DNA of 64,000 bases from NCBI GenBank assembly GCA_018296565.1, contig GCA_018296565.1_3935.1; one strand, given 5' to 3'. The notes beneath the pieces were generated by a model. That model was given only the letters and a program-made list of their open reading frames with translations, ran no database searches and was not told the origin of the DNA. Shown here piece after piece: positions 32,131 to 33,900 of this stretch (positions are counted from its first letter, which is position 1; each line of letters starts with the position of its first letter). Source of the DNA: a phage. The position numbers and the translations under genes are program-made.

Positions 32131-32433
32131 GCTACTGCCATCCTTCCATACCAAACCGTTCCCAACCCAACCCTACAGCACCGAGCCAAACCCTACCGAA
32201 CCGTGCCTAACCTGACCTAACCGTACCTTACCAAACATCGCTTAAAAACCCTCTTAGAAGACGCTTAAGTGATGTAATCGAATTTTAATGTAGCTCCGAT
32301 TAACTACCCATACCTGACCTAACCTGACCTAACCGAACCGAACCAAACCCTACCCCGCCTCACTGTACCTCATTAAAAGACCCTGTTTAAAGACCTTTTA
32401 AAAAGGAGCCTCCGAAGAGGCTACCTAGTCAAC
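32131..32433. repeat. C/A-rich G-poor intergenic repeat region, copy 1
   Basis: About 300 bp noncoding, plus strand nearly devoid of G, short repeats (cctgacctaacc x2, ccgaaccgaacc). Contains 33-nt module ttaaaaaccctcttagaagacgcttaagtgatg, hairpin aatcg/cgatt, and module cattaaaagaccctgtttaaagaccttttaaaaagg. Confidence 0.6.
32395..32422 (-). terminator. Rho-independent terminator (minus strand) after the 32434-33464 cassette
   Basis: Minus strand reads hairpin agcctc-ttcg-gaggct followed by TTTTT. Confidence 0.5.
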
Positions 32434-32874
32434 TTAGAAAGGTTTTCTACGTTGCTTGTTAATGTTAGCTTTCATAGCAGCTAAATGGTTTTGCTGTTCA
32501 ATCAGTCGTGAGCGTTCTTGATGGCTAAGTGCCATAGTGTTCACATTCTCAATCGCTTGAGTGGCTTGCTTTAAAGCTCGACCAATCTTACCAGACATTT
32601 TACGTTTTGCAATAGTTGCTTGATGCTTAGGTTCAACCACACGATAACCAACACCCATTGAAGCAACCAGATAAATCTTCTCTTCTTTAAGAAGCTTCTC
32701 AATAAACTTCTCAAGTCGGTTTAGACGTGTAAGCGCATAAGCCTTCATTTCATCTTCGTACTTAACAATGTCACCTTGATAAGTTGGCTTCACAATACCT
32801 AAGAAGGTATCCATCTCAGAGTGTGATACAGTGTCACCGTAACTAAACTTTGCTGCTAATGCTTTTGTATTCAT
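32434..32874 (-). CDS. Hypothetical protein (cassette gene 2)
   Basis: 146 aa ORF, ATG start, helical and basic C-terminus. Confidence 0.5.
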   Translation of the reverse strand: MNTKALAAKFSYGDTVSHSEMDTFLGIVKPTYQGDIVKYEDEMKAYALTRLNRLEKFIEKLLKEEKIYLVASMGVGYRVVEPKHQATIAKRKMSGKIGRALKQATQAIENVNTMALSHQERSRLIEQQNHLAAMKANINKQRRKPF

Positions 32875-32876
32875 AA

Positions 32877-33464
32877 TTAAACGTTACCTTCTGAAATAAC
32901 TTCTACAGAAAAACGACCAAAGCGTGGACGCCAATCACCTACACCACAAAGGTTACCAGCATTTTCCAGAACCATCAAGAGTTCCTCTTTGGTGATTTGC
33001 TCTTCATCGAACATCAAACCGAACTCTACAGACCAGTCACGGAAGATTGGACGGTAGCTCATAACTCGTGCTGTGCCAATCTTAACAGACTTAGCATAGA
33101 TAAAGTCTGGATTCTTAGCAAGTTCTTGTGGGTTTGCTGGACAGTTCTTGATAGTCATTGGGAAGACTACATCTGTCAGCATAATGGCTCGGTCAATTAC
33201 CTTACCAAGTTTGTTGAGTTTCGCACCAGACTTGATGCAAGCCTCAATCATCTCACCGTTCATAACAAAACCTAGCTGCTCATCGTAGTAACAAGAAGTT
33301 ACCAGTTGGCTTTCTGCTAAGAGCGCATAGTCTTCGTCGGTCTTTTTACGTTTACTGGACAGAGACTTGTGATATTTTGTCAGAGGGTTTAATGGGTCTG
33401 ACAGTGTATCAGCGTGGCTCAGGAAAGGACGAGTACCAGTGATTTTGATATTTAACAGTTTCAT
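32877..33464 (-). CDS. Hypothetical protein (cassette gene 1)
   Basis: Track ORF starts at a GTG at 33479; ATG at 33464 follows a ggagc RBS. No recognisable motif. Confidence 0.5.
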
Positions 33465-33480
33465 AGCATTTAGCTCCACA

Positions 33481-33900
33481 CTTTAGTTGATTGTTAAGTT
33501 GTTTGTAAAGAACCCTCAACAGAAGACTCTTTAGAAACTTGGTAGATTTTTAATGTGGCTACTACCATCCACCCATACCAGACCTAACTACACCTCACCC
33601 CACCTGACCCATACCTCGCATTACCATACCAAACCAGACCCTACCTCATTAAAAAACCCTCTTAAAGACCTTTTAAAAAGGTAAGTCTCATTTTAATGTA
33701 GCTGAGACTAACTACCCGCACTTTACCGCACCGGACCTTACCGGACCGCACATCACCGCACTAAACCAGACATCACATTACCTGACCACACCAAACCAAA
33801 CATCACATTACTTAAAAACCCTCTTAGAAGACTCTTAAGTGATGCTGGTGAGTACCCGTTGGTTTATGCTGCTCAGTATACTCACCAAATTTTCTATGTC
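33481..33900. repeat. C/A-rich G-poor intergenic repeat region, copy 2
   Basis: About 420 bp noncoding, same modules as copy 1 in different order (modules near 33647-33681 and 33811-33844), hairpin gtctc/gagac with identical loop, degenerate extra motif copy near 33506-33536. Confidence 0.6.

Follow-up and report, generated by a model that had tools for sequence, protein, structure and literature searches.

The two hairpins of the window (the whole 64,000-nt stretch that was analysed) are very probably the constant 3′ tails of guide RNAs 1 (copy 2) and 3 (copy 1) in a VIPR locus. VIPR, for Viral Interference Programmable Repeat, is a phage system of RNA-guided DNA silencing described in two 2026 preprints (bioRxiv 10.64898/2026.04.26.720920 and 10.64898/2026.04.26.720927). 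According to these, the guides of type II systems (vrRNAs) consist of 9–16 YNNGG repeats and, after them, a 3′ tail that is invariable, measures about 40 nt, and shows a pseudoknot and covariation. The present analysis establishes the identity of the protein, the repeat architecture, the strand, and the covariation of both helices.

Vipr, its accessory gene, and the guide tracts

The window comes from a Felix O1-like phage (Felixounavirus), with every local gene on the minus strand. Between the hairpin copies there is a 195-aa ORF matching PDB entry 36pp_D, "SUSP1 Vipr protein" (E = 9.9e-129). The product is identical to the SUSP1 protein at 197 of 200 positions (98.5%) and carries eight of the nine published RNA-contact residues (H17, E71, M72, R138, C173, D177, W178, and R179); position 175 is V both here and in SUSP1, and the preprint text gives T. 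It thereby fits the profile of Vipr in the SUSP1 clade of type II: a minimal RAMP homolog near 20 kDa in size, with over 90% identity to the SUSP1 protein. An accessory gene in operon with vipr is also present: vap1, with a predicted DNA-binding function, lies 3 nt downstream on the same strand and is 99–100% identical across SUSP1-clade loci, including SUSP1. A Pfam search of its product returned nothing.

Read on the minus strand, the locus is very probably a type II VIPR of the SUSP1 clade, in the order P1, guide 1, guide 2, vipr, vap1, terminator, guide 3, guide 4 (Table 1). The upstream vrRNA-vipr-vap transcript presumably starts at P1, whose −35 overlaps the stop codon of the ligase gene. 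A σ70 scan gave promoter-like sites at 33902–33875, 32094–32066, and 33509–33480. P2 drives the next operon, and the inverted repeat around its −35, read as RNA, would be a long hairpin with a U run that closes the downstream guide array.

Table 1. Features of the VIPR locus in the order of the minus strand (H-B, long G·U-rich hairpin)
Feature	Position	Strand	Details
P1, σ70-like promoter TTGACA-16-TATACT	33875..33902	−	11/12 matches; conserved in Felix O1 and Si3
Leader hairpin H-B, class T1, immediately before guide 1	33805..33845	−	−13.6 kcal/mol, z −3.45; plus strand −7.5
vrRNA-1 tract	33716..33800	−	17 pentamers in YNNGG phase, 12/17 canonical
vrRNA-1 3′ tail, class b2 (copy 2)	33684..33715	−	hairpin AGUCUC/GAGACU 33684–33709
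Inter-guide hairpin H-B, class T2	33642..33683	−	−12.6 kcal/mol, z −2.2
vrRNA-2 tract	33573..33648	−	8 repeats and 7 repeats, separated by one additional G at 33608
vrRNA-2 3′ tail, class a2	33540..33572	−	GUGG (33569–33572):CCAC (33555–33558); hairpin UGGUAG/CUACCA
Hairpin H-B, class T3, between last upstream guide and vipr ribosome-binding site	33501..33538	−	−13.6 kcal/mol, z −3.3
vipr, 195 aa	32877..33464	−	ATG at 33464 (mechanical ORF from GTG 33479); PDB 36pp_D match
vap1, VIPR accessory gene, 146 aa	32434..32874	−	position and 99–100% identity to SUSP1-clade gene
Intrinsic-terminator-like hairpin and U run, after vap1	32407..32422	−	terminator scan
Hairpin H-B, class T2, 5′ of guide 3	32368..32406	−	−12.1 kcal/mol, z −2.5
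vrRNA-3 tract	32308..32372	−	13 YNNGG repeats, 12/13 canonical
vrRNA-3 3′ tail, class b1 (copy 1)	32276..32307	−	hairpin AAUCGG/UCGAUU 32276–32301, G·U closing pair
Inter-guide hairpin H-B, class T1	32235..32275	−	−12.0 kcal/mol, z −3.0
vrRNA-4 tract	32146..32235	−	18 repeats, 16/18 canonical
vrRNA-4 3′ tail, class a1	32113..32145	−	AAGG (32142–32145):CCUU (32128–32131); hairpin UGGCAG/CUGCCA
Inverted repeat, 19-nt arms around −35 of promoter P2 (TTGACA-17-TATTTT)	32066..32113	−	repeat and promoter scans

The window contains only four ACCNN-periodic tracts (GGYNN on the minus strand), each adjoining one hairpin, and in a complete relative with an 88-kb genome such tracts are confined to the VIPR locus. 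On the minus strand, the hairpins lie directly 3′ of tracts of 13–18 YNNGG pentamers. These tandem guides flank vipr on its own strand, and 71–92% of their repeats are canonical. Guides 1 and 2 contain noncanonical repeats or a break of phase; hence the four guides need not all be functional. Among phages with 99–100% identical flanking proteins the tracts are hypervariable, 91 of the 171 units taken from relatives being distinct, with the phase kept and the NN varying. One Vipr protomer would sit on each repeat, holding GGY and presenting the NN dinucleotide, and the dinucleotides together would read a DNA target with every third base skipped.

With a threshold of at least 80% of NN positions under the one-nucleotide-skip rule, no natural target of this phage's guides was found in IMG/VR or, for guide 4, in metagenome and GTDB contigs. 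Exact 10-repeat NNx patterns from guides 1, 3, and 4 (the latter over two spans) had no match in IMG/VR, and the guide 4 pattern, run also on metagenome and GTDB contigs, had matches of no more than 75% when extended, in unrelated taxa, as expected by chance. Self-targeting was sought in the window and in the complete relative, where the best matches equal those of permuted-guide controls and none exceeds them. The SUSP1 clade targets a satellite phage, for which a blastn search of the tail junction and capsid-region genes against complete Escherichia coli genomes returned nothing.

Structure and covariation of the tails

In plus-strand letters, copy 1 (32276–32301) reads AATCG-A-ATTTTAATGTAGCT-C-CGATT and copy 2 (33684–33709) reads (A)GTCTC-ATTTTAATGTAGCT-GAGAC(T). 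A recount agrees with the first-pass annotation on the place of both hairpins, on their identical 14-nt loop, and on their common 3′ segment: TAACTACC is found after both (at 32301 and 33709), and TAACTACCC follows each hairpin. That annotation described two copies, and both are present, but the window contains four hairpins of this type, the further ones being at 32113–32140 and 33540–33567. The exact 14-mer is found at the two sites only, with about 0.0005 exact matches expected by chance in 64 kb (by arithmetic). With two or three mismatches it is found 17 times for 13.5 expected, which is the chance level, save for the near-match at 33547, which is a third tail. The two stems had also been said to differ at every position, an impression that arises when AATCG is set against GTCTC with a shift of one base. 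In register, from the loop outward, the pairs of copy 1/copy 2 are A·C/C-G, G-C/T-A, C-G/C-G, T-A/T-A, A-T/G-C, and A-T/A-T, i.e., three of the six differ (two double compensatory changes and one mismatch becoming a pair) and three are identical.

The functional strand of the hairpins is the minus strand, not the plus strand. As a plus-strand RNA, copy 1 folds at −2.9 kcal/mol (z = −0.3), no better than shuffled sequences; on the minus strand its A·C becomes G·U and the fold improves to −6.4 kcal/mol (z = −1.9). The corresponding values for copy 2 are −11.1 and −12.6 (z about −3). On its own, the copy 1 hairpin is thermodynamically weak. The closing pair of class b1 on the minus strand is G·U, G-C, or A-U, and two single variants ("actact" in class a2, and one in the arms of T1) have G·U on the plus strand instead. 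The strand call from wobble pairs alone is ambiguous, and it is the G·U-rich H-B hairpins, together with the literature, that settle it in favor of the minus strand.

Nor is the loop free: its first 4–6 nt are paired with the TAACTACCC segment in a pseudoknot. The constant tail that closes each guide tract, about 32 nt long, would fold as an H-type pseudoknot. The 4–6 nt directly after the last repeat (GUAGUU, or TAACTACCC in plus-strand letters) would pair with the start of the loop, AGCUAC, in helix S1, and the 6-bp stem of the hairpin would be the second helix, S2. In the vrRNA-1 tail, the 5′ strand of the pseudoknot is GUAGUU at 33710–33715 and the 3′ strand is AGCUAC within the loop AGCUACAUUAAAAU; in vrRNA-3, the 5′ strand is GUAGUU at 32302–32307. 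Forming all six S1 pairs would leave connecting loops of zero length, and the true S1 is probably 4 bp. We infer that S1 and S2 are the helices of the published SUSP1 pseudoknot.

The covariation counts cover four classes of tail from about 30 related genomes, with slid partners as a control. Cells are paired in 98.9% of cases for b-type tails (29–36% when slid) and in 98.3% for a-type tails (30–52% when slid). In the b-type hairpin, with 15 distinct tails, the 6 bp are paired in 100% of cells, and three of them have changed on both sides. The double changes of a-type tails concern two pairs in the pseudoknot helix and one in the hairpin, and across classes the loop covaries with the upstream segment (AAGG/CCUU, GUGG/CCAC, and GUAG/CUAC). 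Hairpin and pseudoknot both carry the compensatory changes typical of type II VIPR tails. Rfam covariance models gave only subthreshold chance matches (E between 0.77 and 8.8).

Within each class the stems are almost invariant, with few independent events behind the covariation, which is that of a few discrete paralogous tail classes and not of many independent events. The tails are constant and the adjacent tracts unalignable between phages whose neighboring proteins are 99–100% identical. Selection would act on pairing, not on the letters of the stem, resulting in paralogous tails with different stems. The original proposal of a selected secondary structure, based on compensatory stem changes around a conserved loop, is upheld by the covariation of both a-type and b-type tails. 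In the near-identical SUSP1 system, published sRNA-seq, covariation analysis, and cryo-EM establish the region as a structured RNA tail.

Alternatives to a guide-RNA tail

Hairpins that are mere transcript-end or stability elements (intrinsic terminators or REP-like 3′ protectors), with no role in a pseudoknot or a Vipr complex, are very unlikely. Any small RNA gains exonuclease protection from a 3′ hairpin, UUACCUUUUU follows copy 2 on the minus strand, and nearby elements of phage ASO1B are annotated "terminator." However, the terminator scan of the window gives only the element after vap1 (32407–32422). The loops have 14–16 nt, the stems are AU-rich, and there is no U run at copy 1; the G+C-rich stem, 3–8-nt loop, and U run of a Rho-independent terminator are found together at neither hairpin. 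Furthermore, a simple end-hairpin leaves unexplained a conserved loop that covaries with the upstream segment, and in the SUSP1 complex cryo-EM resolves the pseudoknot as a 3′ cap (2026 VIPR preprints). Elements acting at the DNA level are extremely improbable. The loop would then be a promoter −10 (TAAAAT, minus strand) or a core for protein binding or recombination, and the arms an operator or a cruciform promoting cassette shuffling. TAAAAT is similar to TATAAT, and the variable number of units (1 to 3 per intergenic region) and the swaps of tail classes between phages indicate that the repeats do recombine. Yet the promoter scan gives no σ70-like match at the hairpins, and the sole −35-like hexamer is 13 nt away, a spacing at odds with a σ70 promoter (16–18 nt needed). 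The motif is found nowhere else in the 88-kb genome. One would expect binding or recombination sites to keep their arms and free their spacer, which is the reverse of what is found, and the G·U closing-pair intermediates and G·U-rich neighboring hairpins fit a minus-strand RNA only.

The near-invariance within only four stem classes, and hence the small number of independent compensatory events, could also suggest pairing without function, either by chance or as a passive by-product of the duplication of palindromic junctions. This we hold to be improbable in the extreme, given the chance expectation for the shared 14-mer, the pairing of all four different stems, the independent covariation of the second helix, and the constancy of the tails beside unalignable tracts. 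Among other candidates, a packaging or terminal-repeat signal, as in the short-repeat arrays of T7, was rejected because the mapped ends of the UAB_Phi87 genome lie elsewhere. A replication origin, R-loop, or G-quadruplex, and likewise an antisense-strand Rho-loading site, primase-site arrays, telomere-like repeats, and a TRAP-like site for a ring protein, were dropped upon the Vipr match. The literature on Felix O1, wV8, and UAB_Phi87 contains no discussion of the repeats.

Related systems and the organization of type II arrays

The tail hairpin, its covariation, and its pseudoknot are already known from the preprints. In SUSP1, guides of about 100 nt copurify with Vipr, and DNA is silenced (2026 VIPR preprints). 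Expression, binding by Vipr, the cryo-EM pseudoknot, and silencing would hold in this phage by analogy with that 98.5%-identical system. The suggestion that the loop might be a protein-binding or RNase site pointed in the right direction, since the literature gives the tail the role of a constant cap for a guide RNA bound to protein. Both loci have guides on the two sides of vipr-vap1, YNNGG repeats, and a tail directly after the last repeat, made of a hairpin and a pseudoknot with compensatory changes. SUSP1 has tail classes a2, b2, b2, and a1, the same set as this phage, except that the b1 tail (AAUCGG/UCGAUU) is absent from the SUSP1 locus examined. The arrangement of guides also differs (two plus two here, one plus three in SUSP1), as do their sequences, and tracts reach 17–18 repeats here versus the published 9–16. 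Pseudomonas phage LESphi2 has a 39%-identical Vipr homolog preceded by three GGYNN tracts, each closing in a hairpin; in phiHSIC, with a 31%-identical homolog, no tract was found at the threshold used.

Like the crRNA handle of CRISPR (the Cas6-bound 3′ hairpin of types I-E and I-F), the tail is a constant structured cap beside a guide that varies and that a filament of RAMP-family protein binds, and there are several guides per array. Unlike CRISPR, VIPR has no direct repeat/spacer units, Cas6, or adaptation genes, its guide is a gapped pentamer code and not a contiguous spacer, and its cap, a pseudoknot, comes in more than one sequence class (four here). In the trp leader of Bacillus, TRAP binds many (G/U)AG-NN repeats with one subunit per repeat, and hairpins flank the run. 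There, as in VIPR, a triplet and a 2-nt spacer are iterated in RNA, each with one protein subunit. However, TRAP recognizes the triplets and the spacers are irrelevant, whereas VIPR spacers carry information; the protein folds are unrelated to Vipr, and VIPR involves no attenuation.

Every guide is bracketed on the minus strand by an H-B hairpin with a conserved apex and class-specific basal stems, of 16–19 bp with many G·U pairs. A parallel is given by intercistronic processing hairpins such as the early RNase III sites of T7. H-B hairpins lie between consecutive guides, the place taken by the hammerhead ribozymes that punctuate vrRNA arrays in VIPR types I and V (2026 VIPR preprints). Unlike these ribozymes, they contain no ribozyme motif (no match in the Rfam search) and are candidate cleavage sites. 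They may mark where type II arrays are processed, e.g., by host RNase III, or may stop the growth of the Vipr filament; if so, they would fill the role of the hammerhead ribozymes of other VIPR types. Felix O1 and other relatives lacking vipr and vap keep well-formed orphan guides, found in about half of the genus, with 80% canonical repeats versus 77% in vipr-bearing phages. A coinfecting relative might supply the Vipr that loads these guides in trans, or they might titrate it. In Kolesnikvirus relatives the ligase gene is not followed by an intergenic region. One guide appears to have arisen by fusion of two. Tails of a-type close arrays and those of b-type are internal, and a given b class is usually accompanied by one downstream hairpin class of its own; the pair may be a recombination module that shuffles guides. 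Taken jointly, H-B processing, trans-loading of orphan guides, and this module are a tentative and rather doubtful set of readings. The main text of the discovery preprint makes no mention of H-B hairpins, orphan guides, the fused guide, or the positional rule of the tail classes.

The hairpin alone adds nothing to the 2026 preprints. It serves as constant cap to guide RNAs of a newly described class, which read DNA via a gapped pentamer code. In the Felix O1-like records examined, the VIPR region is annotated as hypothetical proteins and at most an unnamed repeat, and Felix O1-like phages are widely used in typing and biocontrol. Once the tail is recognized, this region can be annotated as an RNA-guided weapon directed at competing phages, and the punctuation hairpins, orphan guides, fused guide, and modular tail classes bear on the maturation and exchange of type II arrays.

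Locus layout and identification as VIPR

The window belongs to a Felix O1-like myovirus, matched by 260 phage records at about 92-95% identity. The genes near the two hairpins all lie on the minus strand. Two of them, with ORFs of 200 and 146 aa, form a cassette, and the hairpins occupy the intergenic regions on either side of it. Each of these regions contains two repeat units (1 to 3 among relatives). Read on the plus strand, a unit starts with a hairpin and an invariant ACTACCCATACC-like stretch; NNRCC with a strict 5-nt periodicity (65-90 nt) comes next, and a second conserved hairpin, H-B, completes it. 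No periodic tracts were found elsewhere in the window, and in a complete relative of 88.8 kb they are also confined to this locus. Relatives that share 99-100% identity in the cassette proteins have unalignable tracts, which differ by point changes at the NN positions and by indels of 5 or 10 nt; their hairpins and H-B elements are constant. Records labelled Staphylococcus phage SA1 (GU169904) and several Campylobacter phages also hold Felix O1-like sequence including this locus, likely through contamination or chimeric assembly.

When the neighbouring proteins were compared by sequence search against solved structures, the 200-aa ORF was identified with PDB 36pp_D, "SUSP1 Vipr protein" (E 9.9e-129), a match that settles the identity of the locus as VIPR, a phage RNA-guided DNA-silencing system. 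It displaced several other readings of the "triplet plus 2-nt spacer" repeat, among them a site for a TRAP-like ring protein, an antisense Rho-loading site, and an R-loop or G-quadruplex origin. The Vipr of the window is identical to that of SUSP1 at 197 of 200 positions and keeps residues H17, E71, M72, R138, C173, D177, W178, and R179. The 146-aa gene is, by its position, the accessory gene vap1.

According to two preprints (bioRxiv 10.64898/2026.04.26.720920, 10.64898/2026.04.26.720927), Vipr is a small RAMP-family protein that forms a polymer on a guide RNA (vrRNA) of 9-16 YNNGG repeats, with one protomer on each repeat. The protein holds GGY, and pairing with DNA is through the hypervariable NN, every third base being skipped; the complex acts in silencing competing phages and satellites. 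The tract is followed by a tail, an invariable 3' extension predicted in the SUSP1 clade to form a hairpin and a pseudoknot. The two hairpins belong to this 3' tail pseudoknot of the vrRNAs in a type II VIPR locus; guide 1 has copy 2 as its tail and guide 3 has copy 1. Since the tail, its covariation, and its structure appear in the preprints of April-June 2026, the finding is not new. In Pseudomonas phage LESphi2, a Vipr homologue (39% identical) is likewise preceded by three GGYNN tracts (locus L079, 1575-1904), each terminating in a hairpin (GCUG...CAGC) whose base is conserved and whose loop varies. A second G+C-rich hairpin comes after tracts two and three. In this distant clade, the tail thus takes another form.

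Features of the VIPR locus in the window
Feature	Coordinates	Strand	Description
P1 inverted repeat	33847-33854/33879-33886		GGTGAGTA/TACTCACC
H-B hairpin	33805-33845	minus	
Guide 1	33716-33800	minus	17 YNNGG repeats
Copy 2	33684-33709		(A)GTCTC-ATTTTAATGTAGCT-GAGAC(T)
H-B hairpin	33642-33683	minus	
Guide 2	33573-33648	minus	8 + 7 YNNGG repeats
Extra G in guide 2	33608		phase break, GGUAUGG-G
Third related loop copy	33547		
H-B hairpin	33501-33538	minus	
vipr start	33464	minus	true start, ATG
H-B hairpin	32368-32406	minus	
Guide 3	32308-32372	minus	13 YNNGG repeats
Copy 1	32276-32301		AATCG-A-ATTTTAATGTAGCT-C-CGATT
H-B hairpin	32235-32275	minus	
Guide 4	32146-32235	minus	18 YNNGG repeats
P2 inverted repeat	32067-32085/32095-32113		19-nt arms
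HTH protein gene	31132-31461		

The tail pseudoknot and its classes

The first-pass annotation had described two hairpins with a common loop, each followed by taactaccc, and a recount largely bears this out: both hairpins have the same 14-mer loop, and each hairpin is directly followed by TAACTACC. The exact loop occurs at these two sites only within the window, and looser matches are at chance level, except for the third related copy. The stems were also said to differ at every position, which reflects an out-of-register comparison: when the six pairs are numbered from the loop outward, both copies agree at three, show full compensation at two (G-C to T-A; A-T to G-C), and have A.C in copy 1 and C-G in copy 2 at the remaining one. 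Copy 2 folds well on either strand; copy 1 folds at shuffle level as plus-strand RNA (-2.9 kcal/mol, z -0.3) and better as minus-strand RNA (-6.4 kcal/mol, z -1.9), where the A.C becomes G.U.

On the minus strand, the taactaccc segment lies directly 5' of the hairpin and is able to pair with the first loop bases. The tail would then fold into an H-type pseudoknot, with one helix (S1) between this upstream segment and the loop and the other (S2) being the hairpin stem. Only four tail classes exist among about 30 related genomes of the Felixounavirus, Suspvirus, and Mooglevirus groups. In gap-free alignments, 98.9% of cells are paired in b-type tails (15 distinct sequences) versus 29-36% in a control with slid 3' partners, and 98.3% versus 30-52% in a-type tails (6 distinct sequences). 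Changes on both sides are found in three hairpin pairs of the b-type, whose closing pair is C-G, G.U, G-C, or A-U, and in two pseudoknot pairs and one hairpin pair of the a-type, which also has one G-C to G.U change; these counts represent a few paralogous classes and not many independent events. Because all six S1 pairs would leave connecting loops of zero length, the real S1 is probably of 4 bp. S1 and S2 seem to correspond to the helices of the published pseudoknot. Covariation of both helices across these genomes thus upholds the proposed selected secondary structure, and the earlier observation is real once corrected, its structural interpretation being right.

Helices of the four tail classes
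Class	S1	S2
a1	AAGG:CCUU	UGGCAG:CUGCCA
a2	GUGG:CCAC	UGGUAG:CUACCA
b1	GUAG(UU):(AG)CUAC	AAUCGG:UCGAUU
b2	GUAG(UU):(AG)CUAC	AGUCUC:GAGACU

Tail classes follow a positional rule. In the fetched loci, a-type tails always end an array, a1 before P2 (the promoter of the next operon) and a2 before vipr, and b-type tails are always internal. Between phages, b1 and b2 swap at the same position, and in almost every unit b1 is associated with a downstream H-B of class T1 and b2 with one of class T2; SUSP1 has one recombinant tail/H-B junction.

Bracketing hairpins and promoters

Tail wobble pairs alone give mixed evidence on the strand. As minus-strand RNA, the H-B hairpins form 16-19-bp stems, with many G.U pairs, topped by 3-5-nt loops (-12 to -13.6 kcal/mol, z -2.2 to -3.5), and as plus-strand RNA they are mostly much weaker. 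This settles the minus strand as the functional one, in agreement with the SUSP1 sRNA-seq of the preprints. H-B hairpins bracket every guide and form three classes, all with the apex GUCUU...GAGGG(U), whose basal stems differ but are complementary (T1, CAUCACUUAA; T2, CCUUxUUAAAA; T3, UAAAGA). We hypothesize that they act as a processing signal or filament stop for type II arrays. In its main text, the discovery preprint describes no precursor, RNase, maturation, or terminator for these arrays and does not mention such bracketing hairpins; in other VIPR types it reports hammerhead ribozymes between guides. One annotation pipeline labelled one H-B hairpin "terminator". In the downstream intergenic region of three relatives (L016, L018, and L019), one T1 hairpin carries an insertion of ~30 nt (CCCTATGAGATACTCTATCGAATATAATTTAAAGAC) that disrupts the apex.

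Both promoters flanking the locus lie within inverted repeats. That of P1, upstream of guide 1, spans the -10 and contains GCTGGTGA, one base off the E. coli Chi sequence; the arms at P2 enclose the -35. These repeats may serve as operators, bound for instance by the HTH protein encoded at 31132-31461.

Guides, targets, and orphan arrays

Five repeats of guide 1 end in UG or AG and not GG (UAAUG, UGAUG, UUUAG, UGAUG, and UAAAG). Since, according to the preprint, silencing is abolished when the GGY of a whole guide are replaced, guide 1 may be weakened or decaying. The extra G of guide 2, an allele also present in the relative L007, falls between its 8 and 7 repeats within a GGUAUGGG motif, the normal marker of the tract-tail junction, which suggests that a deletion removing a tail and a hairpin joined two guides into guide 2. 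The guides match the phage itself no better than permuted controls, as the preprints report for their own VIPR systems. No natural target of the guides was found: exact 10-repeat patterns of guides 1, 3, and 4 had no match in IMG/VR, and metagenome and GTDB matches to that of guide 4 come from unrelated taxa, agree at no more than 75% of the NN positions, and are due to chance. The satellite reported in the preprints as a SUSP1-clade target was not located, as neither the tail junction nor the capsid-region genes had a nucleotide-level match in complete E. coli genomes.

Vipr is present in 118 Felix O1-like records, versus 231 records matching the upstream intergenic region. Felix O1 (L053, 3633-3914) and Si3 (L024, 2823-3104) lack vipr and vap and keep one guide unit; S19cd (L025, 2911-3350) and the SP116-like and BPS17W1-like genomes, also without these genes, keep two. 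Orphan loci (L053, L024, L025, L037, L043, and L048) have 1-3 units, each with tract, tail, and H-B, between the same two promoters as in vipr-bearing phages. Their repeats are canonical in 99 of 124 cases (80%), versus 485 of 627 (77%) in vipr-bearing genomes. About half of the genus may carry orphan guides only. The hairpin itself being known, the remaining interest lies in such side observations around the locus.
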